This document shows positions 4,273 through 59,721 of a stretch of DNA of 64,000 nt, one piece after another. The first letter of the stretch is position 1, and every line of letters begins with the position of its first letter. Below the pieces are notes generated by a model, which did no database searches, was not told where the DNA came from, and saw nothing but the letters and a program-made list of their open reading frames with translations. This DNA comes from Phycisphaerae bacterium (lineage in GTDB: Bacteria > Planctomycetota > Phycisphaerae > UBA1845): positions 80,842 through 144,841 of the forward strand of contig JANQQK010000039.1 in the NCBI GenBank assembly GCA_028289375.1, read 5' to 3'. The position numbers were made by a program, and so were the translations under genes.

Positions 4273-5167
4273 GGTTTGTGTCATACTGCTGCTGGGTTGT
4301 GTGTGTGGATGCGATCCGCCGCCGCTGACCGAGAACGGTGTCGTGAAGGTCTTTGGAACGGTCGGCATGGGAGAGGGTTCGTTCAGCTATCCGCGCGGAA
4401 TTGCACGCGCGGCGGATGGGTGTCTGTTCATTGTTGACAAGACGGCACGCGTGCAGCGTTTCAGCGCCGAGGGGGAATTCGAAACGCAATGGAACATGCC
4501 GGCCAAGAAATCGGGCAAACCGGTCGGGCTGACGGTGCATCCGGATGGCCGGGTGTTCGTGGCCGACACGCACTACCACCGCGTGATGGTGTATGACCGC
4601 GACGGCGGGGAGATCGCGCGGTTCGGTTCGGAGGGTGATGGGGACGGCCAATTTCGGCTGCCGACGGACGTGGCATTCGACGATGCCGGTTTCATTTACG
4701 TGGCTGAGTACAATGGCAACGACCGGGTCACAAAATGGAACGCGGATTACACGTTTCATTCGAGCCTGATCGACGGGCCGATCGACGGCGTGCCGATGGT
4801 GCGCCCGGCTGCTTTGCTGGTCGACGATGAGCGAACGCTGTGGGTGGCCGACGCTTGCAATCACCGGATACTGCGGTTCACGTTGGAGGGCGAACTGCTG
4901 AGTCAGTTCGGATCGATCGGGACCGAACCGGGTCAACTGCGCTATCCGTATGATATGGATATGAAAGACGGTATTCTGCTCATTTGTGAATATGGCAACA
5001 GCCGGCTTCAATGGTTTGACAAGGCCGGGAATTCGCTGGGCGTGTGGGGCAATGCAGGCCGCAGCATCGGCGAGCTTTACTCGCCATGGGGGGCGGCGTA
5101 TGGTTTGGATGGCATGATTTACGCGTTGGATTCGCAGAACAACCGCGTTCAAATGATCAAACGGTGA
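4265..5167 (+). CDS. NHL-repeat beta-propeller lipoprotein
   Basis: Lipobox LLLGCVCGC. Repeated NHL-type units (GSFSYPRGIARAADGCLFIVD, GQFRLPTDVAFDDAGFIYVAEYNGNDRV, GQLRYPYDMDMKDGILLICEYGNSRL, GELYSPWGAAYGLDGMIYALDSQNNRV). GTG start overlaps the permease stop by 8 nt. Confidence 0.7.
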   Translation: MRRVCVILLLGCVCGCDPPPLTENGVVKVFGTVGMGEGSFSYPRGIARAADGCLFIVDKTARVQRFSAEGEFETQWNMPAKKSGKPVGLTVHPDGRVFVADTHYHRVMVYDRDGGEIARFGSEGDGDGQFRLPTDVAFDDAGFIYVAEYNGNDRVTKWNADYTFHSSLIDGPIDGVPMVRPAALLVDDERTLWVADACNHRILRFTLEGELLSQFGSIGTEPGQLRYPYDMDMKDGILLICEYGNSRLQWFDKAGNSLGVWGNAGRSIGELYSPWGAAYGLDGMIYALDSQNNRVQMIKR

Positions 5168-8100: not shown

Positions 8101-8304
8101 GATCCGACGCCGGGATCGTCGGTTGGCAACCTGACCGAAGCCATGGGCGGCGCGAAGGCAACGGATTCCGGAGAGAAACCGAAACAAAAATCCGGCGAAC
8201 AGCGTGAACCGGGCGAAACCGAGGAAGCCCACACGTCGCGGTTGCTGCGCGCCAAGCGTCGCGCCCGTGGCAAAATCGACGACGACAAAGACAAGCAAGG
8301 GTAA
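5164..8304 (+). CDS. BatA-N-terminal-domain / double VWA-domain membrane protein (1046 aa)
   Basis: GTG at 5164 overlaps the NHL gene stop (GTGA). BatA-like N-terminus LPFSFEKPEWLWLALLVPVLVVASYRAL. VWA 1 has the MIDAS motif DRSQS and VVLMSDGNDN. A second VWA-like module carries HIILISDGDAA...GGRFYPV. C-terminal TM helices are followed by a K/E/Q-rich tail. The upstream part of the 5044 ORF lies inside the NHL gene and is discounted. Confidence 0.75.
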   Translation: MTTLLDQLPFSFEKPEWLWLALLVPVLVVASYRALAGLGPVRRTASLLIRSLVILAIVATLAEIQQVKRNEDLTVIFLMDRSQSVREQETRQESYMEAACKDIPPNDRVGVIDFARHAHLEQLPMKGGYFLERGRLPEMPNPDRTDVAGAVRLAMAMFPHDTAKRVVLMSDGNDNMGDLLGEAQRAAGDGVTIDVVPLWYELHREVFFEKMVAPASAEVGEIVPIRMNVQSNTVTTGRIEIFHNGSKLDLPDEMARRRLEVGNNSFVLKLPIEEPGVQKFEARFVPDNDNADAIVENNRASGFTFVSGKGKVALLTMDPSADRILVDALTDENIQVRMIDLGLEVPDLAGLLDYSAIVLSNVPANVFTEQQQESLRDYVETTGGGLITTGGDEAYGAGGWIGTPLADVLPVELELKHKKIIPRGALVLVMHSCELPRGNYWGKLVAKKSVDTISSRDYIGALAYAGGASWEVPLQFATNKQGIKNKIDRMVIGDMPDFDPTLRLAVKGLTQTDAVQRHIILISDGDAAAPSGKVMQDLIDSNITCSTIAIGYGYHVQEFTLRDIANKTGGRFYPVRNPRALPQIFVKESKVVRRPLIVDEPFTPQVSFAQSEIIAGIADEGGVPPLGGLVLTTPKDLALVSLVRSTEDGTDPVLVHWQRGLGRVVSFTSGYWPQWGTDWTAWPKYSKLWAQIVRWTMRQEAPANFDVITRTEGNQGRIIIEALDKDADYLNFLNMQAKVIDPKLGPRDLRFTQTGAGRYEAVFDTEHTGQYIASIGIIQEGDYLGSIHTGISMPFSPELREMSTNEALLREVVTTTGGRWLDSGAETDDVFSHDLPPTVSKQPVWDWTLAWILLPLFLLDVSVRRLASWLALSIVVELLIIVVLLFGAGVIYTNWFGVLGVFIFAELVGWSIRYQYIRPLFDWMTHSVTALGQAGERSTQTLGQLKDVRERGKADESQQQAAQRPVESTTPKTARFDAGDPTPGSSVGNLTEAMGGAKATDSGEKPKQKSGEQREPGETEEAHTSRLLRAKRRARGKIDDDKDKQG

Positions 8305-8363
8305 GAAACCGCAATCGACGATCGCCACCGATTTCAGGACTGCGATCAAACGGAGCAACCAAC

Positions 8364-9383
<1,020 letters not shown>

Positions 9384-10277
9384 ATGGCCTCCACCAGCGA
9401 CACAACCCTGCTCGATCCGGAGTTCATGACCAAGCTCAACCGCCTTGAGCTGATCAGCCGGAAGATCTTCGCGGGGAAGGTGCGCGGCGAGCGACGATCC
9501 AAGCGTCGCGGCGAATCGGTCGAGTTCGCCGACTTCCGCAACTACACCGTCGGCGATGACCTGCGCTTTCTCGACTGGAACATCTACGCCCGTCTCGATC
9601 GCCTGTTTCTCAAGCTGTTCCTCGAGGAGGAAGACTTGCTCGTCAGCGTGATCTTCGACACATCCAGCAGCATGGACTTCGGCGATCCGCACAAAGGCCA
9701 CTACGCCCGGCAACTCGCCACCGCCATGGCCTACATCGGCATGGTCAATCAGGATCGGGTCAGTCTCTATCCATACGCCGACGGCATCGTCGACGAAATG
9801 AAGGGCGTCCGCGGCAAGCGCATGACACCGCGGATGATCGATTTCGTTTCCCGTTGCGACTATCGCCCTGCCAGCGATCTGACCGCTGCCTGCAGACAAT
9901 ACGCCATTCGTCATCCGCAGCGCGGCATCGTCATCGTCATCAGCGACTTCCTGGACAAGGGCGGATTCGAGGCAGGCCTGAAGTTTCTGCTCGGTCGCGA
10001 TCTCGACATCTACGTCATCCATGTGCTCGCACCGCAGGAAACCGAACCGCCCGTCACCGGCGATTTGCAACTGTTCGACATCGAGGACGAGGACATCGCC
10101 GAAGTGACCGTCAGCCGCGCACTGATCAACCGCTACAAACACAATCTGGAGGCCTACTGCAGCCACGTCCGCGACTATTGCGCCCGTCGCGGTATCGCGT
10201 ACCTGTTCACCACGACCGACGTGCCGTTCGATCAACTGATCCTCAACTACCTCCGCCGCCGAGGGCTTGTGCGCTGA
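9384..10277 (+). CDS. DUF58 domain protein (MoxR partner)
   Basis: RGESVEFADFRNYTVGDDLRFLDWN signature of DUF58. Starts directly after the MoxR stop codon. Confidence 0.8.
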   Translation: MASTSDTTLLDPEFMTKLNRLELISRKIFAGKVRGERRSKRRGESVEFADFRNYTVGDDLRFLDWNIYARLDRLFLKLFLEEEDLLVSVIFDTSSSMDFGDPHKGHYARQLATAMAYIGMVNQDRVSLYPYADGIVDEMKGVRGKRMTPRMIDFVSRCDYRPASDLTAACRQYAIRHPQRGIVIVISDFLDKGGFEAGLKFLLGRDLDIYVIHVLAPQETEPPVTGDLQLFDIEDEDIAEVTVSRALINRYKHNLEAYCSHVRDYCARRGIAYLFTTTDVPFDQLILNYLRRRGLVR

Positions 10278-10278
10278 C

Positions 10279-12327
10279 ATGAATTTCCTCACCCCGACAA
10301 CGGTGGCGATTGCGGCGGCCCTTTCGATTCCGCCGCTTGTCGCGCTCTATTTTCTCAAGCTCAAACGGCAGCGCTATGCGATTTCGTCGACGCTGCTGTG
10401 GAAAAAGGCCATCGAGGATCTGCACGTCAATTCCCCGTTTCAGCGGTTGCGGACGAGTCTGCTGCTGCTGCTGCAACTGCTCGTCCTGGCATTGGCGGCA
10501 CTTGCCTTGGGGCAACCCATGATGGCGATCGAGCGCGAACGCGAGAAGTCGCTCATCCTCATCATCGACCAATCAGCATCGATGGCTGTCGTCGAGGAAG
10601 ACCAACTCACCCGTCTCGACATCGCCAAACGCGAAGCCGCACGCGTCGTCGACAACATGGACGAGAACAGCCGCGCCATGGTCATCGCGTTCTGCGACCG
10701 TGCCACCATGGTCTCCTCCTTCGATACCGACAAGGACGCCCTCAAACGCAAAATCGACTCCATCGACCAGACCGACAGCACCTCCATGCTCGCAGAAGCC
10801 ATCAACCTCGCCGAAGCCTATTCGCAGAACATCATCATCGGCGGTGACAAGGCCGGCACCGACGTCATTCCCGAAGCGTCAGCCACCGCCTCGGTCATGC
10901 TCTTTACCGACGGCCGCGTGGCCGACGCCGACGAGGTATCGCCACAACGTCTCGACCTGACCAACATGGAAGTCGTCAAGATCGGGCAGCGATCCGACAA
11001 CGTCGGCATCGTCACGATGAACGCCATGCGCAACTACGAAAAGCCTGAATTCCTGCAGGTGTTCGCAAGCGTCCGCAATTTCTCCGATCAGCCCGCGTCC
11101 GTCGACGCCACGCTCTACTTCGACGGCGAACACATGGACGTGCAATCCGTAGACCTGTCTCCCGGTATCGCTCCCCCTTCCGACGACGAGAACGCCCAAC
11201 CAACAGACAACGGCAACGACGTCGTCCCTCCGGGGTCAATGGCGTCCATCGCGTTTGATGAGATCGAATTTGCCTCCGCCGGCGTCGTCGAAATCCGCAT
11301 CAATGCTCAGGACGCGCTCGCCAGCGACAACCGCGCCTTCGCAATCGTCCCCCCATCGCGGCGTGTGAGCATACTGCTCGTCACCGAAGGCCGCTGGCAA
11401 CTGACCGACCTGATGTCGATCCTCAACGTCGATGCCCAAATCATGACGCCGTTCGAGTACGAGAACGCCGACGACGAATTGCTCGCCGACGGCACGCGAT
11501 CTCGCTTCGATGTCGTCATCATCGAAAATCACCGTACCGACCGCCTGTCGACCGGCAACTACTTTTTCATCGGACAAGCCCCGATCATGGAAGGCGTGCG
11601 TGATCTCGGCATCGTCGACGACGAGGTCTTCATCGACTGGGACGACACGCACCCCATCCTCCGCCACACCGCCGTCGGCGTCATCGACATCTTCGAACAC
11701 TGGCGACGACTACGCCTGCCCTCCGAAGCCACCATCCTCATCGAAGGCAGTTCGCCCGATTCCAATGTGCTCTCGCTTCTGTCACGCGATGGCAGCCGAT
11801 TTCTGATCTGCGCCTTCGGACTCGTCGTGGAAAACGATGAAGGTGAGCAGGTGCTCAACACCGCCTGGATGCTCGATCCCGGCTTCATCATGTTCATGAT
11901 GGACGCGATCGATTTCCTGTCGTCGAGCATTTCCACGCAATCACTCGCCAGCCTCGGCCCCGGCGAACCGCAGGTCGTCCCCGTGCCACCGGACACCGAC
12001 TACGTCACCGTTCTGCGACCAGACAACAAGACCGAGCGCCTGCCCACCGCCGGCACCCAGCGCGTCACCTACGCGCGCACGCGTCGTACCGGAACCTACA
12101 CGTTCTCACCCGGCATCGACGGCAAGGACCAGATCGCCGTCAACCTCTTCAACGACAACGAAAGTCTCGTTCGCCCCACAACGAGCTTCGCCATCGGCTC
12201 AAGCCCCATCGCCTCCACCGAAGGCGCCAACCTCGTCGACGAGCCACTCTGGCCCTGGTTTGTGATGGGATTGCTTCTGATCTGTCTGCTGGAGTGGGTG
12301 ATTTACAACAAACGCGTGTTCGTCTGA
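10279..12327 (+). CDS. BatA-N-terminal-domain / VWA-domain membrane protein
   Basis: ATG at 10279, 1 nt after the DUF58 stop. N-terminus MNFLTPTTVAIAAALSIPPLVALYFLKLKRQ. VWA with MIDAS motif DQSAS (LILIIDQSASM). C-terminal TM helix LWPWFVMGLLLICLLEWVIY. Confidence 0.75.
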   Translation: MNFLTPTTVAIAAALSIPPLVALYFLKLKRQRYAISSTLLWKKAIEDLHVNSPFQRLRTSLLLLLQLLVLALAALALGQPMMAIEREREKSLILIIDQSASMAVVEEDQLTRLDIAKREAARVVDNMDENSRAMVIAFCDRATMVSSFDTDKDALKRKIDSIDQTDSTSMLAEAINLAEAYSQNIIIGGDKAGTDVIPEASATASVMLFTDGRVADADEVSPQRLDLTNMEVVKIGQRSDNVGIVTMNAMRNYEKPEFLQVFASVRNFSDQPASVDATLYFDGEHMDVQSVDLSPGIAPPSDDENAQPTDNGNDVVPPGSMASIAFDEIEFASAGVVEIRINAQDALASDNRAFAIVPPSRRVSILLVTEGRWQLTDLMSILNVDAQIMTPFEYENADDELLADGTRSRFDVVIIENHRTDRLSTGNYFFIGQAPIMEGVRDLGIVDDEVFIDWDDTHPILRHTAVGVIDIFEHWRRLRLPSEATILIEGSSPDSNVLSLLSRDGSRFLICAFGLVVENDEGEQVLNTAWMLDPGFIMFMMDAIDFLSSSISTQSLASLGPGEPQVVPVPPDTDYVTVLRPDNKTERLPTAGTQRVTYARTRRTGTYTFSPGIDGKDQIAVNLFNDNESLVRPTTSFAIGSSPIASTEGANLVDEPLWPWFVMGLLLICLLEWVIYNKRVFV

Positions 12328-13843: not shown

Positions 13844-16800
13844 CTACCGCTTACCGTGACATTGCTTGTACTTCTTGCCGCTGCCGCACGGGCAAGGATC
13901 ATTACGACCGACCTTCGGTTCATCGCGGCGAATCGTCTCGGTCTTCTGCGGCGCATTCTGCGCCTTCATCGCCGCCTGCTCATCCTGCGACGCTGCCGCG
14001 AATGCGCCGCCGGTTGCATCGGCGTGCTGGTAATTCACCGGCGCCTGAGGACCGGTCGTCACGGTCCCGGACGTTCCAGCCGGCCCTCCGCCCTGCGGAC
14101 CGCCCGCCCGAAGTTTGAAAATGATGTCGGTCACGCGTGACCGGATCAGCGTCCACATCTGATCGAAGAACTCACGACCTTCGATCGCATACTGACTCTG
14201 CGGGTGCGTCTGGTCACCGCCCATAGGCCGCTGCATGATCGCCGTCTTCAACCGGTCCATTTCCCACAGATGGTCCTTCCACGACTGATCGTAAATCCGC
14301 AGCAGGATGTAACGCTCCAACTGCGTCAACTCATACCGCAGCATCAACTGCCCGGCCTCAATCAGCACCGTTCGTGGATCCTCCCCATCCTGCAACTTCT
14401 TTGCATGATCAGCATGAAACGCTCGCTGATACCGCTTGCGTGCCCACTCGATCAGCTCATCGCCCTCATGCTCGGACAACGCCTGATCGATCTCGGACTC
14501 CAGCTTGCCGCCTTCCATGTAGTCGCGCTGAAGCTGCATGATTTGGTTCGTGATGTCCTCGATCGCACGATTCTGCAACTCCTCGACCTTGAGGTTTACG
14601 TTGTATTTGACGTTCGCCCAACGACAGACCACTTCGCAAGCCTGAGCATTATCCGAACCGGTCCCGCCAAATGCCTGTCCAATCGCATTCTCGACAGGCA
14701 TCCGCAACTCGCGATCGCGATACTTGGCCCGAACACGCTCACCGACCAGTTGAATCGCGTCTTCCGGAGAGATGTCACTCACTTCAGACGTATCAAGCTC
14801 GATGTCGAACTTTCCGCGTGCCCACTCCGCCAACTGCGATGGACCATGATCCGAAGACGCAAAGGCCTCTACGCCGCCGAGATCAACCTCGTCGTAGAAC
14901 GTCTCCGCGGCTTCGGTCAGGGCATCCTCGATGTCGCGCGGGTCCATCTTGCGAAGCTGATTCTGCGTAAACGAGAACTGATACGCCTTCTGTGCCCAGC
15001 GAATCAATCCGCCAACGTCCCACGCCGACGATTCCTCGTCCGCATCGATGAACTCCACCAGCGACGTGCGAATCGACTCGCGGGCCTCATCCTTGGCAAC
15101 CTTGCGGATGCGTTCCTCGGTGCGTTCCAGATCATCGACGTAGATGTCATCCACACCCACCGAGACGTCGAACTGCGCACGTACCCAGTTTGCAATGCAG
15201 TGCGCGCGATAGTCCGAACCCAGAAAGTCCGAAACGCTTTCGTCAATCGCATCGTCAATGATCTCGAAGATGATCGGAGCAATATCCGCATCGGCCAACA
15301 CTTCCTGACGCTTGCTGTAGAAGTCCTTGCGCTGGAAGTCCATCGGCTCGTCCCATTCGAGCAGATGCTTGCGCGTCGAGAAGTTGCGTTCCTCAACCTT
15401 ACGCTGCGCCCGTTCGATGCCCTTGCTCAGCCGCTTGTCCTCAAGACTCGTGCCGTCGGTAAAACCGAGCTTCTCCATCGTCTTGATCATCCAGTCCGGC
15501 ATGAACAGCTTGATGAGATCATCTTCGAGCGAGATGAAGAATCGGGACGAACCAGGGTCACCCTGTCGGCCGGCACGACCGCGAAGCTGATTGTCGATAC
15601 GCCGCGCCTCATGACGTTCCGTACCGATGATGTGCAATCCGCATGGCGAATTCAGCGCACACACCTTTCGGCCAATCTCCGGGAATCGCGGATCGAGCTT
15701 CGGCTTGTAGCAATGCGCACAATTCGTGGCCGGGTCGTATTCCTCGCATTTGATGCAGCACTTCGTCGAACCGATCGGGTAGAGATCATTGGCACGCCCC
15801 TCTTCGGTGACCTTGCAGTTCTCATACACCACGCCCTGTTCGAGTTTGATATCCGTACCGCGACCAGCCATGTTCGTCGCGATGGTGACGTTGCCAATGG
15901 GCGACTTGTCAGCCCCGCGTGTTGGCAGTTGCCGATGCCCCGCCTTAGCGACGATCTCGGCCTCTCGCGCATGGTTCTTGGCGTTCAACACCTCGTGATC
16001 AATGCCGTACCGCTTCTCCAGCAGCGCGGAGATCTTTTCAGACTTTTCAACGCTCGTTGTACCCACAAGCACCGGTCGCCCCTTCGCAAGATCGCCCATG
16101 GCTTCATCGTAGGTCTCGAGCATGAAGTTGATGACCTTCTGATCGCCCTCTTCGGCGTTGTTGAACTGACGGATCGCCTCGTCGACGCGCGACGTGTCCT
16201 GCCCGAGGTTCGACATCACTGGCTTGAGCTTGTTGAACAAGTCGAACATCAGGAACGGATCGCGAGGCCGCCCCTTCCGGCGCATCTCGTGAATCTCGTC
16301 GACGATGGCGTTGTACTTCTGATCACCATTGCGGAACATCTTGTCGTTGTGGTCGACGCGGTTGACCGGGCGATTCGTCGGAATCTGAATCACTTCCAGC
16401 TTGTATATCTTCAGAAACTCCTCCGACTCGGTCGCCGCCGTCCCGGTCATCCCCGACAGATATGTGTACAGCTTGAAGAAGTTCTGAATCGTGATCGTCG
16501 CGAGCGTCTGCGTCTCCTGTTTGATCGGGACATTTTCCTTTGCCTCGACGGCTTGGTGCAGTCCGTCCGACCACTGCCGACCAATCATCAGTCGCCCCGT
16601 GTTCTCGTCGACGATGATCACCTCGCGATTCTGCACGACGTAGTCCTTGTCGCGCTCGTAGACGATGTGCGCCCGCAGCGACTGCTCGATCAGGTGCGGA
16701 CGATCCATGTTCGTCCCGACATAGAAACTGCCAATCCCCGCCTCATCCTGCGCAATCGCAACGCCCTCGTGCGTCAGCGAAACGGCCTTGCGATCCTGCT

Positions 16801-17752
16801 GCACCACGTAGCACTGTTTGTGGCCGATGCCTTCCGCCTCTTCCTCGCCGACCATGTTCGGGTCGATCCCGAATCGCCGAACGGCATCCATCGCCTTTGG
16901 ATTCTGCGTCACCTGTTCCGGCAGATCCTCTCCCCACTCTGCCAGCCGAGCCTTCGTCTCCTTGTTGAACTCGGCCTGCTTGCGCACGAGAAGCCGTGCC
17001 AGGTTGTCGGCCCACTTGTACCGATTCGGATCATCCACGGCTGGTCCGGAGATGATCAGCGGCGTTCGCGCCTCGTCGATCAGCGTCGAGTCCACCTCGT
17101 CGACGATCGCAAAATCAAGCCGGCCCTGCACCTGCTCGACATGCCGCATCTTCATGTTGTCGCGCAGGTAGTCGAACCCGAACTCGCTTGTCGTCCCATA
17201 CGTAATGTCGCACGCATATTCCTTCGCCCGAATGCCCTCACGACCACCCGGGTCGACCTGAGACTGAATGTAGCCCACGGTCACACCCAGCGGTTCCATG
17301 ACCGCCGCGGCAAACTCGGCATCGCGCTTTACCAGATAGTCATTGACCGTGACGATGTGCACCTTGTCACCCATCACGACGCGCAGATACGCAGCAAGGT
17401 GACAGACAATCGACTTGCCTTCACCCGTCCGCATCTCCGCCACCGAACCGTCGTACAGCACCTTGCCGCCGATCAGCTGGCAGTTGAAGTGCCGATGCTC
17501 TTTCGCACGACGCGACGCTTCGCGCATCACCGCAAACGCCTCAGGCAGCAGCGCATCAGCCGACTCGCCATTCTTGGCGCGCTGTTTGAACTCGTCCGTT
17601 TTCGCGCGGAGCTGTTCGTTGGACAACGCCCTCGTCTGCTCCTCGATCGCCTCCACGGAGTCTGCCACCAACCGCAGTCTCTTGAGCAGACGGTCATTCC
17701 GCGACCCGAAGCACTTGTCCAACACCTTGCCGATAACCGATTGCAGTGACAT
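13844..17752 (-). CDS. secA: preprotein translocase ATPase SecA (expanded, 1302 aa)
   Basis: N-terminus [16 protein letters not shown]. Walker [72 protein letters not shown]-terminal zinc finger [15 protein letters not shown]. Confidence 0.95.
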
Positions 17753-29744: not shown

Positions 29745-29817
29745 GGCCCCATCGTCTAGTGGTTTAGGACACCGGCTTTTCACGCCGGCAACACGGGTTC
29801 GAATCCCGTTGGGGTCA
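29745..29817 (+). tRNA. tRNA-Glu (anticodon UUC)
   Basis: Cloverleaf folded by hand: acceptor GGCCCCA/TGGGGTC (one G-U pair), D arm GTCT..GGAC, anticodon stem CCGGC/GCCGG with loop TTTTCAC (TTC), T arm ACGGG-TTCGAAT-CCCGT, discriminator A. CCA is not encoded. Confidence 0.9.
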
Positions 29818-50292: not shown

Positions 50293-50627
50293 GATCGAAG
50301 AGGCTTGCGTCCTTTCAAATCCTCATGGGCGACGCGTCAATGCGTCTTTCTGCTGGATTATCGGTCTTTTGGCCCGGTCCGCTCAAGCCATCGGCCCGTT
50401 GGCGACCGAATGCCAGCCTGAGTGCTTGTATTCTAACCCACGCCGAGGCGACGGGCCAATCATAAGTTCATCTTTTCGCGCGTCTTACGGCCGATGGGTG
50501 AAGATTCGTGTCGCGGTGGGCATCGGAGTGGGCGAACGGTTATACTGCTATCTGCGCTTCGCGGGGTGCAAAGTGCCGGGAGAATTCGCCGACGGGTTCG
50601 GCGACAACAACAGGAGAAGGAACGAGG

Positions 50628-51563
50628 ATGAGAAGCGACCAGATCCGACTTGGGGCAGTGATGGCGTGTGCGGTGGTGACGCTGGCGGTGACGCCGGGAT
50701 CGGGGCAGAGCGTGACACTCGAACCGACGAAAGACAACACGCTGTATGAATCGGCGGCGGGCAACCTGAGCAATGGATCCGGAACGGGGTTTTTTGTGGG
50801 GCGGACGAATCAGATTCCGGCAGACGGACCTCTGCGACGCGCGCTCCTGGCGTTTGACGTGGCCGGGAACGTTCCCGCGGGCGCGGTGATCACATCAGCC
50901 TCTTTGCAGTTGCGGCAGAGTCAGGGCACCTCATTCGCCAACGACATTTCAATCTTCCGCGTTCTGGTTGACTGGGGGGAAGCGGGATCGGTGTCGGCTG
51001 GCGGTGGCGGGGGAATGGGCGGAGCGGCTCAGACTGGCGACGCCACCTGGACATCGAATTTCTTTGGCTCGTCCCTCTGGGCGTCGACTGGTGGTGACTT
51101 CGACCCAGTCGCACGGGCAACGACGACGGTCGCGGACGTTGGTTTCTATACGTGGGCGTCGACGCCGGGCTTGGTGGCCGACGTGCAGGCGTGGCTGGAC
51201 ACGCCGGCTGGCAACTTCGGCTGGATTCTCATCGGGGAGGAAGGGTTGGCTGGTCGCGCGAAGCGCTTCGCCACACGCGAGGTTGGCGATCCGGCATCGA
51301 GGCCTCTGTTGACGATCGACTACGTGATGCCAGGTGGTCCGGGCGCGTGCTGCTTCGGGGACGGGTCGTGTCAGTCGCTCGACGAGGCCAATTGCGATTC
51401 GATGATGGGTGACTATCAGGGACCTGGGGTGTCGTGCCTTCCGAATCCATGTCCGCCACCGGTGCCGGCTGCGTCGACGTGGGGAACGATTGTCATGTCG
51501 TTGCTGGTGGTCTGCGCGGGGACGCTGGTGTTCCGCCGAAATGCGATGCCGTCGCTGAACTAA
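50628..51563 (+). CDS. secreted DNRLRE-like-domain protein with Cys-rich module and C-terminal TM/basic sorting-like tail
   Basis: RBS AGGAGAAGG before the ATG at 50628. Signal peptide AVMACAVVTLAVTPGSGQS. TLEPTKDNTLYES...RRALLAFDV resembles the DNRLRE domain. CCFGDGSCQSLDEANCDSMMGDYQGPGVSCLPNPC. Tail VPAASTWGTIVMSLLVVCAGTLVFRR. Confidence 0.6.
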   Translation: MRSDQIRLGAVMACAVVTLAVTPGSGQSVTLEPTKDNTLYESAAGNLSNGSGTGFFVGRTNQIPADGPLRRALLAFDVAGNVPAGAVITSASLQLRQSQGTSFANDISIFRVLVDWGEAGSVSAGGGGGMGGAAQTGDATWTSNFFGSSLWASTGGDFDPVARATTTVADVGFYTWASTPGLVADVQAWLDTPAGNFGWILIGEEGLAGRAKRFATREVGDPASRPLLTIDYVMPGGPGACCFGDGSCQSLDEANCDSMMGDYQGPGVSCLPNPCPPPVPAASTWGTIVMSLLVVCAGTLVFRRNAMPSLN

Positions 51564-53416: not shown

Positions 53417-53535
53417 GGAATGAATCCTTGATCTTGGGGTCGATGTTTTCCGGTTGTCAGCCGATTACTTTTATACGCGAACGACGGGAAAAGCACTAGA
53501 ATCACCCGCCCGTGGGCAACCGGAACCGAGCCGAC

Positions 53536-54300
53536 ATGGCCATGATCGAAGTTGACAATCTGACGAAGGAATTTCACGACAGTGATGGCCGCGCGTTTCG
53601 CGCGGTGGACGGGTTGTCGTTTCAGGTCGAGGCGGGGCAGATTTATGGTCTGCTCGGTCCGAACGGTGCGGGCAAGACGACGTCACTGCGGATGCTCAGC
53701 GCGTTGATGACACCATCATCGGGACGCATCACGGTGAATGGCTACACCGTTGGCGAGCACGTCTTCGAAATCAAACAGTCGATCGGATTTCTGACGGCCA
53801 ACACGGGACTGTATCAGCGGTTGTCGCCGCGCGACGTGCTGCGCTATTTCGGCGAATTGCATGGATTCGACAAACAGCAGGCACGCGACCGTTGCGAGGT
53901 GTTGATCCGCGAGATGGATATCACTGATTTCTCAGATCAACGGTGCGGCACGCTCTCGACAGGACAAAAGCAACGCACAAACATCGCAAGGGCGCTGATC
54001 GCCGATCCGCCGGTCCTGATCATGGATGAGCCGACGCTTGGTCTTGATGTGATGAGCAACCGCGTGATTCTCGATTTCATCATCGCCCAACGCGAAGCGG
54101 GCAAAGCGATCATCCTCTCCACGCACTACCTCGACGAGGCGGAAACGATGTGCGACATGATCGGCCTATTGCATCGCGGACGGATCGTGGCTGAAGGAAC
54201 GATCGATGAGCTTCGTGAGCGTGCAGATGCGGTGCGGTTGTCGAGCATCTTCCTGAAACTGATTCACGCCCATGATCCGCTGGAGGGCGTGCTTCCATGA
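53536..54300 (+). CDS. ABC transporter ATP-binding protein (ABC-2/NatA-like)
   Basis: Walker A GLLGPNGAGKTT. Signature LSTGQKQR. Walker B VLIMDEPTLGLD. Its stop overlaps the next start (ATGA). Confidence 0.9.
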   Translation: MAMIEVDNLTKEFHDSDGRAFRAVDGLSFQVEAGQIYGLLGPNGAGKTTSLRMLSALMTPSSGRITVNGYTVGEHVFEIKQSIGFLTANTGLYQRLSPRDVLRYFGELHGFDKQQARDRCEVLIREMDITDFSDQRCGTLSTGQKQRTNIARALIADPPVLIMDEPTLGLDVMSNRVILDFIIAQREAGKAIILSTHYLDEAETMCDMIGLLHRGRIVAEGTIDELRERADAVRLSSIFLKLIHAHDPLEGVLP

Positions 54301-56444
54301 ACTTCAGCCGCACGTGGTCAATCTACGTCAAGGAGCTTGTTGATCTGTTGCGTGATCATCGCACGTTGCTGGCGATGATCGTGGTGCCGATCGTGCTCTA
54401 TCCGGCGCTGATGCTTGGCGGTATTCAGGTATTGAGCACGCAGACGGCGGAGTTGGAAGAGTCGCGATTTGTCATCGCGTTTCAGGAAAAATCGCACTGG
54501 GACGACGTGATCGCGCCGATGCTGCAGGACGAAATCACGCTCCTACAGGCCAGACGTGCCAAGGCAGCGGCCGACGGAGCCAGTGAGGAATTGCTGGCCG
54601 CGATGCCGAAACCCGTCGCCCCGCTGATCGATCCCAAGATCACGCTGAATCTGGAAGAGGCTGTCCGCTCGCGCCAGGTGCATTGCGGGGTCATCGTGGA
54701 ATCAGCCGGCAATCTTCAGGTTCCGGGTCAGGAGCAATGGCGACTGAAGCTGCTCTATCAGCCTGAGGATCTGCGATCGCAAGTGGCGTCGGAGCGACTG
54801 ACGGCGGCGTTTGAGCGTGTGGCTGACAGCGTCGTGGAGCGGCGACTGCGGATGCGGCAGCTCGACCCGGTGCTGATCAAGCCGATCGTCGTGGCACGTG
54901 AGCAGTTGACGTCTGCGGGATCGGTACTGGGGCTGATCGTGCCGCTGATTCTGGTGCTGATGACGATCACAGGGGCGATCTACCCAGCCATCGACGTCAC
55001 GGCGGGCGAGCGGGAGCGTGGGACACTCGAATCGCTGATGGTCTGCCCGGTGCCGGTGATCGATCTGATCTGCGGCAAGTTCATGGTGGTCTCAACGATC
55101 GCGATCATCGGGGCGGCCTTAAACCTGGCCAGTGTGACAGTGACGGTCTTTCTCGGTGGTTTTCAGCAGATGCTTAACATGGGGGCAGCGGAGGGCGAAG
55201 CCGGGTTTCCATTTTGGGCATTGCCGGTCGTTCTGCTGTGTCTGATTCCGCTGGCGGTGCTGATGTCGGCGATCATGATCGCGGTGTGCAGCTGTGCGCG
55301 GACGTTCAAGGAGGCGCAGAATTACGTATTGCCCGTGATTCTGGCGGCGCTTTTTCCGGGTGGCATCGCCGCCCTGCCGGGGTCGCGACTCGAGGGTCTG
55401 AATCTCGTGATGCCGGTGGGCAACATGGTGCTGCTGACGCGCGAGCTGCTCTCCGGGGCGCACGTGCCGGCGGCGAGTTATGCGTGGGTGCTGCTGTCAA
55501 CATGTCTGTATGCGGTGGCCGCGGTGGCGCTGGCGGCGAATGTGTTCGGGCGGGAATCGGTGCTGTTTGCCGATTCGGTGTCGCTCAAGGCCGTTTTCAA
55601 TCGCAGGCTGTTTCGGCCTGCCGAATTGCCGACGCTTTCGAGTGCGGCGTTGTACACGGCGTTGCTGTTTCCGATCTGGTTTCACGTTCAGAATCTGCTG
55701 CAAATCTCGTCGGACGACGCGGTGGCTGGTGCGATACGCGGGACCGCCCTGCTGCTGCCGGTATTGTTCGTGCTGGTGCCCGTTGCGGCGATGTCGTACT
55801 GGCGCGTGGAACTGAAAAAGAGCTTGCGAACAGCGATGCCCAGTGGTCGATTCCTGATCGGCGGCGTCTTGATCGGATTGACTGCGTGGATTCCGGCGTC
55901 GGAGCTGTTTGTGTTTCAGGATGCGTACCTGGCATCCCCGCCATCCCTGGTGGAGATGAACAAGTCGCTGATGGCGGCGTTGGAGTCGATGTCATTGCCC
56001 ATGGCGTTGCTGTGTCTGGCCATTGTGCCGGGCGTCGGCGAAGAGTTGTTTTTCCGCGGATTCCTTCTGTCGGCGTTCGGGACGAAGCTGAAGCCTTGGA
56101 CGGCTATCCTTGCCACGGCCATCATCTTCGGCGTCTTCCACTTCATCATCTTCCGGTTCGCCGTCACGATGGGACTCGGGATCGTGCTCGGCGTCCTGTG
56201 TTGGCGCTCACGCTCGGTATGGCCTGGGATCATCGCCCACGTGCTGCACAACGGCCTGGCGGTTTACACGGTGTACAATGAGGGCTGGCGACGATCGATC
56301 GGAATTCCGGAATCGGAAACGTGGCCTGTGCATCTGCCCTGGCACGTGATTCTCGTGGGCGGCGGGATCTTCCTGCTCGGGATCGCATGCGTAATCGTTC
56401 GAAGCGGTCAGCCACCCGTCCAAGCGGAACCTGCCGTCGGCTAG
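54297..56444 (+). CDS. ABC-2 (NatB-like) permease fused to a CPBP/CAAX-type intramembrane protease domain
   Basis: N-terminal ABC-2 permease layout: TM1, large extracytoplasmic loop, then TM bundle with AGERERGTLESLMVCPV. The C-terminal domain carries the three CPBP motifs EELFFRGF (nt 56040-56057), FGVFHF and HVLHNG. Confidence 0.8.
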   Translation: MNFSRTWSIYVKELVDLLRDHRTLLAMIVVPIVLYPALMLGGIQVLSTQTAELEESRFVIAFQEKSHWDDVIAPMLQDEITLLQARRAKAAADGASEELLAAMPKPVAPLIDPKITLNLEEAVRSRQVHCGVIVESAGNLQVPGQEQWRLKLLYQPEDLRSQVASERLTAAFERVADSVVERRLRMRQLDPVLIKPIVVAREQLTSAGSVLGLIVPLILVLMTITGAIYPAIDVTAGERERGTLESLMVCPVPVIDLICGKFMVVSTIAIIGAALNLASVTVTVFLGGFQQMLNMGAAEGEAGFPFWALPVVLLCLIPLAVLMSAIMIAVCSCARTFKEAQNYVLPVILAALFPGGIAALPGSRLEGLNLVMPVGNMVLLTRELLSGAHVPAASYAWVLLSTCLYAVAAVALAANVFGRESVLFADSVSLKAVFNRRLFRPAELPTLSSAALYTALLFPIWFHVQNLLQISSDDAVAGAIRGTALLLPVLFVLVPVAAMSYWRVELKKSLRTAMPSGRFLIGGVLIGLTAWIPASELFVFQDAYLASPPSLVEMNKSLMAALESMSLPMALLCLAIVPGVGEELFFRGFLLSAFGTKLKPWTAILATAIIFGVFHFIIFRFAVTMGLGIVLGVLCWRSRSVWPGIIAHVLHNGLAVYTVYNEGWRRSIGIPESETWPVHLPWHVILVGGGIFLLGIACVIVRSGQPPVQAEPAVG

Positions 56445-56659: not shown

Positions 56660-57178
56660 ATGACACGACGGTTGTTGGGTTTGTGCGTTTTGACCGCGTT
56701 GTTTTTTCCACTTGTCTCCTGCACGTCGACGGAGAAGTCCGTCAAGGTGACGAATCACTGGGTCCATGATGCCCAGTTGCAGGCGTTGATGGTGCACATT
56801 GAGACCGAGACTTACGCGCATGAGCCGGGGCAGGTGGTCACCGCCCCGCCGGATGCATCGCCAAGCGATGAATACCTAATGAAGATTCCGACCAGTCGCG
56901 TCGAGGCACTCTCGCAGGCATGCGAGCTGGCGGATGCGTTGGCGCTGTCGGCTGATCGTATTCATGACACGTCTGTGATCGGCAAGCTATCGGAAGCGGA
57001 TCGGCGCGCGTTCATCGCGCAGGCTGATACGCTCAAAGTTCAGGCGACGCGTTTGAACGATCGTGCAGCGGCTCGGGACATCGCCGGAATGCGTGCGGAG
57101 ATTTCGCAGATTCAGCAGACGTGCAACGCCTGTCACGCGCGATTCCGAGACGTGGCGGGATCGCTGGCACGTCGTTAG
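56660..57178 (+). CDS. cytochrome c-prime-like (class II cytochrome c) lipoprotein
   Basis: GGAGGG RBS. Lipobox FFPLVSCTS. Predicted helical protein with a single C-terminal heme motif CNACH. Confidence 0.55.
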   Translation: MTRRLLGLCVLTALFFPLVSCTSTEKSVKVTNHWVHDAQLQALMVHIETETYAHEPGQVVTAPPDASPSDEYLMKIPTSRVEALSQACELADALALSADRIHDTSVIGKLSEADRRAFIAQADTLKVQATRLNDRAAARDIAGMRAEISQIQQTCNACHARFRDVAGSLARR

Positions 57179-57293: not shown

Positions 57294-59387
57294 CTAATCG
57301 CCTGCTTTGCTCTTCGCCTTCTGGTGCGCTTCGATGATCTCCTTCTGGATCGACGCCGGCGTCTTACGGTAGGCGTGGAAGGTCATCGTGAAGCTGGCCT
57401 TTCCCTGCGTGAGCGAGCGAACATCGGTTGCATAGCCGAACATCTCAGCCAGCGGAACCTCGCCGGTGACGATGGCCGACTGCCCCTTCATCTCCGCACC
57501 ACTGATGATGCCGCGACGCGAACTGAGGTCACCGGTGACAGCGCCCTGGCACTCGGTCGGCGCCTCGACCTCGACCTTCATGATCGGCTCGAGGAGGACC
57601 GGCTTGGCTGCGAGGAACGCCTGCTTGAACGCGGTGCGTGCACAGACCTGGAACGCGAGGTCCGATGAATCAACCGCGTGAAAGCTGCCGTCTTCGAGAA
57701 GCATCTTCGTCTTGACGATTTCAAAGCCAGCCAGTGGTCCCTGCATGCGGGCCATCTGGAAACCCTTGTCGACCGACGGGATGTACTCCGTTGGGATGCG
57801 ACCACCCGTGATCTTGCTCTCGAATTCGTAATCTTCCTCCGAATCCTCGGGCATTGGGCTTAGCTTGCCGACGACGTGGGCGTATTGGCCGGAACCACCG
57901 GTCTGCTTTTTGTGCTTGTAATCGTAGGACGCTTCGTTCGTCGGGGCTTCGCGGTACGAGACCTTTGGCTGACCGACCGTGATGTTGCAGTTGTATTCGC
58001 GACGCAGACGCTCGACGTAAACGTCCAGGTGCAGTTCACCCATGCCGCTGATGATCGTCTCATCGGACTCCTCATCGTAATGGACGTGGAAGGTCGGGTC
58101 TTCCTTCATGAAACGGTTGAGGCCCTTGGACATTTTGTCGCGATCGGCGTTCTTCTCCGGAACGATCGAGAGCGAGATGACAGGCTCCATCACGTGGATC
58201 TGCTCGAGGGCGAAGCTGGTGCCCTGATCGCAGATGGTGTCACCCGAATTACACTCGATGCCCATCACGCCCACGATGTCACCGGCGACGGCTTCGTCGA
58301 TGTCTTCGCGGCTGTTGGCGTGGATCTTGAGAATCCGCATGATCCGCTGCTTCTTGCCGCTGCGGGTGTTGATGTATTGCTGGCCTTTCTGCATGCGACC
58401 GCGGTACACGCGAACGTAAGTCACCTGACCGAAGGCTTCATCCACAAGCTTGAACGCCATGGCCACAAGCTGGCCGTCGGGATCGGCTGTGATGGCGGTC
58501 TCGGCGCCTTCGTTGTGGTTGTCGGATGCATAGGCAACGCGATCCAGCGGCGAGGGCAGGTAACGCACGACGGCATCACAGAGCGGCTGCACGCCGACGT
58601 TCTTGTACGCACTGCCGACGATGACAGCGGTGATCTCGCGATTGAGCGTCGCGGTGCGGATGGCTTTGTGGATCATCTCTGAGGAGAGATCCGCCTCCTC
58701 GAGCATCGCCTCCATCAACTCGTCGTCGTAGAGACTGAGCGTATCGAGCATGCCGGAGCGGGCACGATCGGCTTCCTCGGCGTACTCGGCCGGGATGTCG
58801 ACCATCTTGATCTGCTCGCCGTTGGCTCCTTCGAAACAGACTTTCTTCATTTCGATCAGATCGATCACGCCCTCGAAATTGTCGCCCGCACCGATCGGCA
58901 ACTGCAGCGGGACAGCCACGTGACCAAGCTTGCTTTCCAACTCACTGACGACCTGAGCAGGATCGGCGCCGACGCGGTCCATCTTGTTGATGAAAGCGAT
59001 CCGAGGCACGCGGTAGCGACGCATCTGACGGTCAACCGTCAGTGTCTGCGACTGCACACCACCAACCGCACAAAGCACGAGAACCGCGCCATCAAGAACA
59101 CGCAGCGAACGCTCGACCTCAATGGTGAAGTCGACGTGACCGGGCGTGTCAATGATGTTCACCTCGTGATCCTGCCACGTGACGTTGGTGGCCGCGGAGG
59201 TGATGGTGATGCCGCGCTCTTTTTCAAGCTCCATGTGATCCATGGTGGCGCCGCCATCCTTGCCCTTGACCTCCTGGATGCGGTGGATGCGACCTGTGTA
59301 GAACAGGATGCGCTCGGTCAGGGTGGTCTTACCCGAGTCGATGTGAGCACTGATGCCGATGTTGCGGACGCTTGCTAGATGTTCCAT
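57294..59387 (-). CDS. fusA: elongation factor G (mitochondrial EF-G1-like / spd-type)
   Basis: ATG at 59387 gives [42 protein letters not shown] and NKMD G-motifs. 697 aa. The ORF part upstream (to 59573) lacks protein-like features. Confidence 0.92.
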
Positions 59388-59721
59388 TGCTCTTTCGTCA
59401 CACTCTACTTTGTGGTTATTCCCCACCCGTCGCCGGAAGACCCTTCCGGTCCACGCCTGGCCCAATGCACAAGTAACAGGTGGGATCGCTATTGTTGAAA
59501 CCGAATTGGCCCGGTCCGACCCTGAGCCAACCCCCGACTGGCGAGGCCCGCCAGCGATGGGGAAGAGTAGCACGTTATGTCAACGAAATCCAGCCCTTAG
59601 ATCGGTTCCTGTCCCGTCTGAACGAAAAATTTGCGAATGGTTTGCACAGACTTATCGGTCACCGTCTGCGAGGACCGCGAACCGGGCAGGATTCCAGATG
59701 AAATCTCGGACCGAATGTGAA

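Follow-up and report, generated by a model that had tools for sequence, protein, structure and literature searches.

A translationally coupled ABC ATPase and ABC-2 permease–CPBP protease fusion in a Phycisphaerae bacterium

The two genes and the domains of the fusion protein

The window, a 64,000-nucleotide stretch of a Phycisphaerae bacterium contig, contains a pair of overlapping genes, and all features of this locus lie on the forward strand. The first gene (53536–54300) encodes an ABC ATPase of 254 aa from the ATG at 53536, with an alternative GTG start at 53512. The Walker A (GPNGAGKT), signature (LSTGQ), Walker B (LIMDEP) and H-loop (STHY) motifs, read in the translation, are intact. The protein matches Pfam ABC_tran with 114.9 bits, and its nearest NCBIfam model is that of the DrrA subfamily (235.7 bits, under the cutoff of the model). 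The second gene (54297–56444) encodes a 715-aa fusion of an ABC-2 permease with a CPBP (Rce1-like) glutamic intramembrane protease and matches the NCBIfam family NF041647. The start of the permease gene overlaps the stop of the ATPase gene in an ATGA read in the sequence (54297–54300), which indicates translational coupling. This overlap, reported in the first-pass annotation, is real and also conserved: an overlap of −4 nt was found in 65 of 81 related loci, and one of −1 nt in three others. The locus is a self-contained two-gene operon for a nucleotide-binding subunit and a permease–protease fusion, and the two are translationally coupled. By likeness to other ABC-2 half-transporters, the complex probably contains two ATPase and two fusion subunits. 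A scan gave no promoter-like sites, and terminator-like sites occurred at chance level. The Rfam scan of the window found a tRNA alone, distant from the locus.

The ABC-2 (type V) transmembrane domain comprises residues 1–419 (54297–55553), as delimited by Pfam, invariant columns and fold matches. Pfam ABC2_membrane_2 (PF12679) covers residues 7–421 with 73 bits, above its gathering score, and ABC2_membrane_3 and ABC2_membrane_4 match as well. According to the AF2 model and hydropathy, the chain opens with a cytoplasmic helix, which is followed by TM1, the ectodomain and TM2–TM6, and then by the linker and eight CPBP helices. The ectodomain, located between TM1 and TM2 (residues 47–209, 163 aa; 54435–54923), is a periplasmic alpha/beta domain according to the AF2 secondary structure; it is poorly conserved in the alignment of homologues, and its charge composition is consistent with the periplasm. 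The cytoplasmic loop following TM2 carries the invariant residues D233, T235, G237, E238, E240, R241 and T243, unchanged down to 27% identity, and E339 (within FKEAQNY), P373 and N376 are invariant further on. The best structural matches of residues 1–430 are ABCH-9C (8yzp, E = 2.8e-4) and ABCA7 (E about 3e-3), and ABCA4, ABCA3, NosY, PmtCD and Wzm are matched by fold too. The ABC-2 half is a six-TM type V exporter domain with a separate ABC ATPase, as is characteristic of the class. It is followed by a cytoplasmic K/R-rich linker (residues 420–446, 55554–55634), defined from topology and the alignment, with the invariant residues E420, F424, S429 and R436.

The CPBP/Rce1-like domain, with eight TM helices (residues 447–700, 55635–56396), was assigned with Pfam and fold matches; the Rce1-like model PF02517 covers residues 568–653 with 74.3 bits, above its gathering score. 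The three CPBP motifs (EExxxR, FxxxH and HxxxN/D) are complete, and all are placed on TM helices. Motif 1, EELFFR (56040–56057), contains E582, E583 and R587, which correspond to E140, E141 and R145 of MmRce1; motif 2, FGVFH (56127–56141), contains F611 and H615, the latter corresponding to MmRce1 H173; and motif 3, HVLHN (56238–56252), contains H648 and N652, the counterparts of the oxyanion-hole residues H227 and N231. Thus, the Pfam scan and the motif translations agree with the initial description of a NatB-like ABC-2 permease joined to a complete CPBP domain with three motifs.

The profile of the CPBP domain matches MmRce1 (4cad) at E = 1e-9. A Foldseek search with the full-length query retrieved SpdC (6u0o_A, prob 0.90, TMt 0.47) and Rce1 (4cad_I, prob 0.77, TMt 0.48). 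The full-length protein gave no match in a sequence-profile search of the PDB, and the PDB fold search returned no solved structure spanning the ABC-2 and CPBP halves. The full-length AF2 model has a pLDDT of 79.4 and a pTM of 0.67, a moderate confidence that makes the packing of the domains uncertain. Residues E582, E583, F586, R587, G588, F611, H615, H648 and N652 are invariant in 42 homologues down to 27% identity, which argues for catalysis by the CPBP half. The catalytic Glu and His residues, whose loss in orthologues had been named as grounds for rejecting a protease, are also unchanged in 28 close homologues. By fold and motifs, the CPBP half is a predicted Rce1-like glutamic intramembrane endopeptidase in which none of the catalytic residues is missing.

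Family, distribution and gene neighbourhood

The fusion protein matches the equivalog model NF041647 (ABC_perm_CPBP) with 597.6 bits against a cutoff of 435 (E = 3.3e-179), and residues 2–659 align with positions 1–634 of the 636 positions of the model. An identical protein is already present in NCBI, and the NCBI product name of the homologues is the name of the NF041647 family, which bears out the statement of the first-pass annotation that databases name such fusions. The fusion is already catalogued and named by NCBI; NF041647 is a bioinformatic definition, of which the window protein is an unexceptional member. A literature search found no experimental study of the fusion and mentioned NF041647 solely in a Listeria table, as a CDD label.

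The search for relatives gave 1,601 homologues, the best 120 of which are nearly all single ORFs of ~700–760 aa with both domains. Relatives are encoded in at least 568 stretches of species-representative genomes, and 1,449 clusters were obtained at 50% identity (E ≤ 1e-30). A frameshift or an assembly error merging two genes, a concern raised at the outset, can be dismissed with near certainty: the same single ORF occurs in independent assemblies and in at least 568 genomes, the equivalog is matched over its full length, and nothing was found in favour of a merger. Members of NF041647 occur in Phycisphaerae, Pirellulaceae and Lentisphaeria. The gene pair is core-like in Phycisphaerae and common in bacteria of the Planctomycetes group, and across the PVC group strong purifying selection acts on both modules.

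JGI/KEGG label the homologues "sodium transport system permease protein", a label of the NatB type; no NatB-specific model was matched in the NCBIfam scan. Such a label would suit a NatAB-type pump for Na+ or small solutes, with the CPBP domain as an unrelated passenger or a non-catalytic scaffold. SpdC, described as a scaffold and lipid binder and not as a protease, demonstrates that the CPBP fold can act in this way (bioRxiv 10.1101/2020.05.21.109470). However, the label is an orthology-transfer annotation only, the catalytic residues are all invariant to 27% identity, conservation across the PVC group extends to the fusion and to the residues of its linker, and the structural matches are exporters of lipids, polymers and peptides, which makes a sodium or solute pump highly improbable.

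The gene neighbourhood was surveyed with tblastn of the window neighbours and with unbiased clustering of the ORFs within 5 kb in 80 loci. In 75 of the 80 loci, an ATPase homologue directly precedes the fusion gene. When all ORFs within 5 kb were clustered, a divergent fumC was the only other conserved neighbour, and the remaining clusters were antisense shadow ORFs of these genes. The ATPase–fusion pair recurs amid housekeeping genes in the distant lineages Pirellulaceae and Lentisphaeria, and its neighbours in the window are likewise housekeeping genes, without a defence-island context. No genes for precursors, bacteriocins, lantibiotics or two-component sensors were linked to the operon in about 88 loci, and the survey of the 80 loci gave no substrate or biosynthetic genes either. 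This setting is more suggestive of a constitutive role in the cell envelope than of a system dedicated to exporting, or conferring immunity to, a bacteriocin, RiPP or natural product.

Several other neighbours were considered. A downstream ORF for a 172-aa cytochrome-c'-like protein and the gene for EF-G were rejected as partners, since synteny ends at the closest relative. The extra genes between fumC and the ATPase gene in two loci (L005 and L006), considered as candidates for sorting-signal proteins, encode Fe-S hydrolyase subunits. A prepilin-peptidase (A24_N) neighbour is present in two independent Planctomycetia lineages only.

ABC-2 pumps include transporters that protect against lantibiotics. 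In a resistance or immunity system of this kind, the ABC-2 half would expel membrane-active peptides (cf. BcrAB, LanFEG and NatAB-type systems), and an outward-facing CPBP domain of the Abi type would degrade or neutralise them. CPBP/Abi proteins are linked to bacteriocin self-immunity (PMC10811503), the ATPase scores 142.6 bits on the NCBIfam model TIGR03740, under its cutoff, and an outward-facing active site would be compatible with such a role. However, the operon is without linked bacteriocin, lantibiotic or two-component sensor genes, and its core-like distribution and fumC synteny are unlike those of accessory immunity loci. PADLOC gave no matches for the fusion protein and generic ABC/AAA similarity alone for the ATPase, so the pair does not classify as an anti-phage (Abi) system. 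A resistance or immunity function is thus clearly unlikely, and the bacteriocin-immunity framing of the first-pass annotation was abandoned for an operon of housekeeping-like, core character.

The curated CPBP models closest to the CPBP half are MrtS, the PEP-CTERM-associated CAAX protease and MrtJ; all myxosortase models scored under their cutoffs (MrtS, 46 bits against 130; TIGR03008, 40.1 against 81; MrtJ, 30.8 against 75; Mrt_core, 19.6 against 100). MrtX provides a precedent for a CPBP protease acting as a sorting enzyme (PMC11980579). In a myxosortase-like role, the CPBP domain would remove C-terminal tripartite signals (e.g., IPTL-CTERM) at the outer face of the inner membrane, and the ABC module would clear the anchor peptide or extract the protein. 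An IPTL-CTERM protein is encoded 2 kb upstream of the operon in the window; the related loci, 1.03 Mb in all, gave a single further IPTL-like tail, encoded right beside the operon in one more locus (L023). These are, however, two loci only, with a chance of such proximity of roughly 0.04 by a rough estimate, and the other Phycisphaerae loci are without an adjoining sorting-signal protein. Moreover, IPTL-CTERM is described mainly from proteobacteria, where the fusion was not seen. Sorting of this type appears very unlikely.

Membrane topology and the proposed mechanism

The orientation of the protease was approached indirectly, through the topology of the whole polypeptide, under the presumption that all eight CPBP helices span the membrane, although TM7, TM11 and TM13 are only weakly hydrophobic. 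Since the C-terminus of the ABC-2 domain must be cytoplasmic, the CPBP domain is expected to insert N-in. The predicted CPBP loops of the window protein contain 4, 5, 2 and 2 K+R residues on the cytoplasmic side versus 0, 1, 0 and 2 on the periplasmic side, and the family-wide means are 3.5, 3.7, 1.1 and 1.1 versus 0.2, 2.3, 0.0 and 1.2, respectively. Both the N- and C-termini of the CPBP domain are predicted to be cytoplasmic from this charge bias. The polar residues Q465, E536 and Q541, conserved in the family, are situated in the periplasmic halves of TM7 and TM9. The loop 544–566, just before the helix with the EE pair, is predicted to be periplasmic, in agreement with SpdC, whose TM3–TM4 loop and groove lie outside the cell (bioRxiv 10.1101/2020.05.21.109470). 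In MmRce1, the termini are non-cytosolic, the cone is open to the cytosol and R145 is found at its closed end; this orientation is itself inferential and at odds with the topology data published for ScRce1 (PMC5874806). An N-in CPBP domain, like that of SpdC and opposite to the MmRce1 assignment, should have its catalytic cone open to the periplasm and the outer leaflet, with R587 presumably sealing the cytoplasmic side of the cone. From the charge bias, the MmRce1 residue mapping and the SpdC structure, we infer that the protease cavity is on the periplasmic (trans) side. The orientation proposed for this cavity is the contribution of the present analysis.

To our knowledge, CPBP/Rce1-like proteases are very common in bacteria, and few of them (MroQ, MrtX and DidK) have a known substrate. 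A protease physically tied to a transporter narrows the search, as the molecule pumped is probably the molecule cleaved. Lipid exporters (ABCH-9C, ABCA7, ABCA4 and ABCA3) are the best matches of the transporter half, and the amphipathic-peptide exporter PmtCD is matched as well. We propose that the ATP-driven ABC-2 module would move or flip a hydrophobic, amphipathic or lipid-anchored peptide or protein from the inner leaflet or the cytoplasm, and that the outward-facing protease of the same polypeptide would then cut this substrate laterally within the membrane. Cleavage would release or mature the exported moiety, or take off its anchor. We give an even chance to this reading, in which the ABC-2 module exports or flips a hydrophobic or lipid-anchored substrate, the outward-facing CPBP domain then cleaves it and the system serves the cell envelope.

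The first-pass annotation had suggested coupled cleavage and extrusion. Functional coupling of the protease and the transporter is plausible, both modules being under selection; a periplasmic cavity as predicted by topology argues against the cleavage-first order, and export followed by cleavage is the likely order, not cleavage on the cytoplasmic side as in PCATs. That the same molecule is cleaved and transported is an assumption, the operon being without a linked substrate gene.

Yeast a-factor is processed by Rce1 and exported by the ABC transporter Ste6. This example would favour PCAT-like coupling in cis, where the CPBP domain opens to the cytoplasm or the inner leaflet and cleaves a lipidated or leader-bearing precursor, which the ABC-2 half then extrudes. 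Rce1 acts at the cytosolic face (PMC5874806), and PCATs show that cleavage followed by export is feasible in a single polypeptide (PMC8794836, PMC11491471). However, the fusion forces the N-terminus of the CPBP domain into the cytoplasm, and its eight spans are then inverted with respect to MmRce1 and match the outward-facing SpdC; in addition, none of the about 88 loci has a linked precursor gene. Coupling in cis is therefore distinctly unlikely. The gene pair is conserved like a housekeeping function in Phycisphaerae and other members of the PVC group, bacteria with unusual and little-understood cell envelopes.

Comparison with known systems

The permease half shares its layout of an N-terminal TM helix, a large ectodomain and a 5-TM bundle with ABCH-9C, ABCA and NatB-type permeases. 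In contrast to the fusion, ABCH-9C and the ABCA transporters are eukaryotic proteins with fused NBDs, none has a protease domain, and the identity is only 11–14%.

The catalytic domain is homologous to that of Rce1, and with MmRce1 (4CAD), a type II CAAX prenyl endopeptidase, it shares the eight TM helices and, one-to-one, the E-E-R, H and H-N residues. MmRce1 is a stand-alone enzyme with a cone directed to the cytosol, whereas the CPBP domain of the fusion appears to be inverted and is joined to a transporter. There is no indication of a prenyl-CAAX substrate in the Phycisphaerae bacterium. SpdC (6U0O) of the SagB–SpdC complex resembles the fusion in its bacterial 8-TM CPBP fold, and it acts together with a partner on a lipid-anchored substrate. 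The fusion, for its part, keeps every catalytic residue, and its partner is an ABC exporter and not a glucosaminidase.

DidK, a CAAX/CPBP hydrolase of the didemnin pathway, cleaves an N-acylated prodrug, and this cleavage is required for export (PMC10811503). DidK offers a functional precedent for a membrane CPBP activity tied to the secretion of a lipidated peptide; it is, however, a stand-alone esterase in an NRPS-PKS cluster, whereas the operon of the fusion is without biosynthetic neighbours.

In PCATs, a C39 peptidase and an ABC exporter are combined in one polypeptide, and the coupling of processing to export has been shown experimentally (PMC8794836, PMC11491471). Coupled proteolysis and export is thus a known mechanism, and DidK adds a case of cleavage preceding export (PMC10811503), contrary to the initial view that nothing of the kind had been described experimentally. 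The fusion resembles PCATs in joining a protease and an ABC exporter in a single chain. Pfam and NCBIfam detected no C39 or ABC_membrane domain in it, so it is not a PCAT. PCATs, such as PCAT1, have a soluble cytoplasmic C39 domain at the N-terminus, a type IV exporter, a fused NBD and cleavage in cis, whereas the fusion has a C-terminal intramembrane glutamic protease, a type V permease, a separate ATPase and an active site predicted to lie in trans. The two are not homologous, and the fusion may nevertheless work in a PCAT-like manner. If its protease truly faces the periplasm, the fusion would be a mechanistic counterpart of PCATs with processing on the trans side.

A broader reading, which we put forward tentatively and consider fairly unlikely, is that NF041647 represents a second and mechanistically distinct class of protease-containing ABC transporter, in which a type V exporter feeds a lipid-anchored or hydrophobic substrate to a trans-facing intramembrane glutamic protease. 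This would be a core machine of envelope biogenesis or protein sorting in PVC bacteria, processing, for example, IPTL-CTERM-type or other membrane-anchored surface proteins. If true, it would offer a defined and tractable substrate pathway for bacterial CPBP proteases.

Architecture and conservation of the ABC-2/CPBP fusion

The ORF listing places the ABC ATPase gene on the forward strand from 53512 (GTG) or 53536 (ATG) to 54300, and the 715 aa fusion permease ORF on the same strand at 54297–56444. Direct reading confirmed the ATGA overlap claimed in the first-pass annotation: at the junction, CTTCCATGAACTTC, the start codon of the permease (ATG at 54297) shares bases with the stop codon of the ATPase (TGA ending at 54300). 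The domain assignment made there was borne out by the Pfam scan, in which the ATPase matches ABC_tran and the permease carries ABC2_membrane_2 at residues 7–421 (73 bits) and an Rce1-like domain (PF02517) at residues 568–653 (74.3 bits), both above the gathering score. The three reported CPBP motifs are likewise present in the translation: EELFFR (56040–56057), FGVFH (56127–56141) and HVLHN (56238–56252). An AlphaFold2 model built from 28 homologues (mean pLDDT 79.4, pTM 0.67), combined with hydropathy, features an N-terminal cytoplasmic helix, TM1, a 163 aa alpha/beta ectodomain (residues 47–209), five further TM helices, a linker (420–446) and eight more helices.

A search of 5.8 billion proteins gave 1,601 matches at E ≤ 1e-5. 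The best 120 of these are nearly all single proteins of about 700–760 aa with both Pfam domains present, and at least 568 stretches encoding a relative were found when each GTDB species was scanned through a single genome. These single two-domain ORFs refute the reading of the fusion as an artefact of a frameshift or merged genes, an outcome that the first-pass annotation had allowed for and that we regard as having a negligible probability. An NCBI entry (P0001) is 100% identical to the window's protein. The NCBIfam equivalog model for this architecture, NF041647 (ABC_perm_CPBP), matches the fusion end to end (model positions 1–634 of 636) and gives the homologues their NCBI product name; the first-pass annotation was thus right that databases carry such fusions by name. 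The architecture is already catalogued and not new, and the window's copy is an ordinary member of the family. Taken alone, the architecture and the family assignment are near certain. The literature searches brought up no study devoted to the NF041647 family; its accession turned up solely in a Listeria table, where it labels a conserved domain.

The CPBP residues E582, E583, F586, R587, G588, F611, H615, H648 and N652 do not vary among 28 sequences of 45–74% identity, nor among 42 sequences that reach down to 27% identity. The catalytic Glu and His, whose conservation had been left to be checked, are thus retained throughout. In both alignments, residues D233, T235, G237, E238, E240, R241 and T243 of the ABC-2 cytoplasmic loop after TM2 are also invariant, as are E339 (in the FKEAQNY motif), P373 and N376. 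Judging from these sequences, both modules look catalytically competent. Some homologues are named "sodium transport system permease" (NatB) by JGI and KEGG, a transferred label. A NatAB-like ion pump, in which the CPBP domain would be a passenger or scaffold, is contradicted by the invariant catalytic residues and is very unlikely.

Distribution and genomic context

The 80 loci retained from the GTDB-species scan belong, essentially without exception, to genomes and MAGs of Phycisphaerae or Planctomycetota. When 1.84 billion cluster representatives were searched exhaustively with HMMER, 1,449 clusters passed E ≤ 1e-30, many matching over the full length at 32–37% identity, and the distant members, as sampled, belong to Pirellulaceae and Lentisphaeria. 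The family is large and phylum-wide, and its distribution is core-like across the PVC group. One locus (L062; JANQQE010000021.1, a 666 kb contig) is labelled Alphaproteobacteria, yet has the fumC–ATPase–fusion synteny of Phycisphaerae, with fumC at 74% identity; this MAG has probably been mis-binned or mislabelled.

The ATPase gene lies directly upstream of the fusion gene in 75 of the 80 related loci; in the others the fusion gene begins at a contig end. Of 81 loci, 65 show a 4 nt overlap of the two genes and 3 more a 1 nt overlap. The overlapping pair also occurs in Lentisphaeria and Pirellulaceae, and in other distant members the two genes are likewise adjacent. The operon is conserved and translationally coupled. 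A divergent fumC is found upstream in 28 of the 80 loci. Unbiased clustering of all neighbouring ORFs of these loci revealed no recurrent family beyond the ATPase and fumC, except their antisense shadow ORFs. No gene on the downstream side is conserved. The window itself is a core chromosomal region with MetF, class II fumarase, EF-G, SecA, a BatA/VWA operon, an M16 peptidase and PolX. In the loci examined, no precursor peptide, bacteriocin, RiPP, NRPS, sensor kinase or defence genes are linked to the operon, and PADLOC gave no match for the fusion protein. The operon looks like a constitutive two-gene system rather than an accessory locus for immunity or export. Immunity to antimicrobial peptides would fit an outward-facing active site, but is at odds with the housekeeping context and the lack of linked genes, and we consider it unlikely.

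The fusion might also be a sorting protease resembling the myxosortases. Of the curated CPBP models, MrtS, the PEP-CTERM-associated CAAX protease and MrtJ come nearest, but the scores of the fusion are all well under their cutoffs. A secreted DNRLRE-domain protein (50508–51563, forward strand; NF033679, 48.3 bits), encoded 2 kb upstream of the operon beyond fumC, ends in a tail, VPAASTWGTIVMSLLVVCAGTLVFRRN, that barely passes the IPTL-CTERM model TIGR04174 (20.6 bits versus a cutoff of 20.5). In the related locus L023, a 600 aa protein (5184–6986, reverse strand), whose gene is flanked directly by fumC and the ABC ATPase, has an IPTL-like tripartite tail, GGIPTMSQWGIAILALALLIGAKVMYSRRPAAE. The 1.03 Mb of related loci contained no other such tail, and the comparable slot in loci L005 and L006 is filled by Fe-S hydrolyase genes. 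Limited to two loci, this linkage is anecdotal, and a sorting role is quite improbable.

Several other features of these regions were recorded. Just 3′ of the window's operon, a 172 aa ORF (56660–57178, forward strand) shows a weak Cytochrom_C_2 (cytochrome c′) match and carries a CNACH haem-binding motif C-terminally; NCBIfam gave no match, and the ORF is not kept beside the operon elsewhere. Loci L083 (10169–11320), L084 (8175–9323) and L086 (3402–4538) have, near the operon, a gene for a prepilin-peptidase-like protein of about 380 aa (Pfam A24_N_bact). In two Pirellulaceae assemblies it follows the fusion gene after 24 bp, and in one other distant locus it sits two genes ahead of the operon; Phycisphaerae loci lack it. 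The window's SecA (13844–17752, reverse strand) is unusually long at 1,302 aa, with about 145 extra residues in the SecA_DEAD domain (residues 12–446 cover a 290-position model). The EF-G ORF (57294–59573, reverse strand) is listed with a GTG start about 60 codons upstream of the start of its TIGR00484 match (residue 65), and its true start is probably an internal ATG. The BatA/VWA "aerotolerance"-type cluster (5044–12327, forward strand) encodes a 1,086 aa protein with VWA and GATase1-like domains and a 686 aa BatA_N and VWA protein. A single tRNA is located at 29745–29817.

Predicted orientation of the CPBP domain

The N-terminus and the post-TM2 loop of the ABC-2 module are placed in the cytoplasm because both must engage the ATPase; with six ABC-2 TM helices, its C-terminus and the K/R-rich linker are therefore also predicted to be cytoplasmic. 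In the window's fusion, the predicted cytoplasmic loops 420–446, 500–518, 596–599 and 637–641 contain 4, 5, 2 and 2 K+R residues, and the predicted periplasmic loops 472–476, 544–566, 615–617 and 661–681 contain 0, 1, 0 and 2. The means over 42 homologues, in the same order, are 3.5, 3.7, 1.1 and 1.1 versus 0.2, 2.3, 0.0 and 1.2. Under the positive-inside rule, this clean charge alternation predicts an N-in CPBP domain, with the caveat that TM7, TM11 and TM13 are weakly hydrophobic. The fourth CPBP helix, bearing E582 and E583 followed by R587, would then run from periplasm to cytoplasm.

The CPBP domain-only profile matches MmRce1 (4cad) at E = 1e-9, aligning E582/E583 with E140/E141, R587 with R145, H615 with H173 and H648/N652 with H227/N231. 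MmRce1 has non-cytosolic termini and a conical cavity open to the cytosol, with R145 at the closed end towards the lumen, an orientation that is itself inferred and with which published ScRce1 topology data conflict (PMC5874806). The CPBP domain of the fusion is thus predicted to be inverted relative to MmRce1. The open end of its cone should face the periplasm and outer leaflet, and R587 should close the cavity on the cytoplasmic side. Polar residues conserved in the family (Q465, E536 and Q541) are located in the halves of TM7 and TM9 nearer the periplasm. A bacterial structural precedent for an outward CPBP orientation is SpdC, an 8-TM CPBP-fold protein whose extracellular TM3–TM4 loop contacts the extracellular enzyme SagB in the crystal structure 6U0O, and in which a groove leads from a lateral opening in the membrane along the extracellular side (bioRxiv 10.1101/2020.05.21.109470). 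The counterpart of this loop in the fusion is loop 544–566, predicted to be periplasmic. The predicted trans-side orientation is the main addition to the first-pass analysis and makes a specific mechanistic prediction open to test. PCAT-like cleavage on the cis side is unlikely, since the predicted topology speaks against it.

Transporter half, proposed mechanism and precedents

The full-length profile has no sequence relative in the PDB. In the fold search with the full-length model, the N-terminal half resembles type V ABC-2 exporters and the C-terminal half SpdC (6u0o_A) and Rce1 (4cad_I), and no PDB entry spans both halves. Residues 1–430, modelled separately (pLDDT 69.5), best match the insect ceramide exporter ABCH-9C (8yzp, E = 2.8e-4). 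ABCA7, ABCA4 and ABCA3, which share the TM1–ectodomain–TM2 layout, are also among the best matches, followed by NosY, ABCG25, CcmB, PmtCD (an amphipathic-peptide exporter) and Wzm; at identities of 11–21%, these matches indicate resemblance and not family assignment. By analogy, they favour a substrate that is hydrophobic, lipidic or lipid-anchored and that the transporter would extract from the membrane or flip to its other side.

The complex would comprise two ATPase and two fusion subunits with the protease facing outwards. The ABC-2 module would bring or flip a hydrophobic or lipid-anchored peptide or protein to the outer leaflet, where the adjoining protease may cut it laterally, leading to its release or maturation. 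We hold this model, an outward-facing protease acting after ABC-2 delivery, with moderate confidence. The observation in the first-pass annotation was confirmed and its interpretation stands in part, but the implied order of cleavage before extrusion is disfavoured by the predicted topology. The fusion also offers a handle on which substrates bacterial CPBP proteases cleave.

Coupling of a protease and an ABC exporter within one polypeptide is known from PCATs, which differ from the fusion in their cytoplasmic C39 domain and transporter fold (PMC8794836, PMC11491471). For CPBP enzymes with a link to secretion, DidK provides an experimental precedent: it removes the N-acyl-polyglutamine prodrug unit from didemnin, a cleavage needed for export (PMC10811503).
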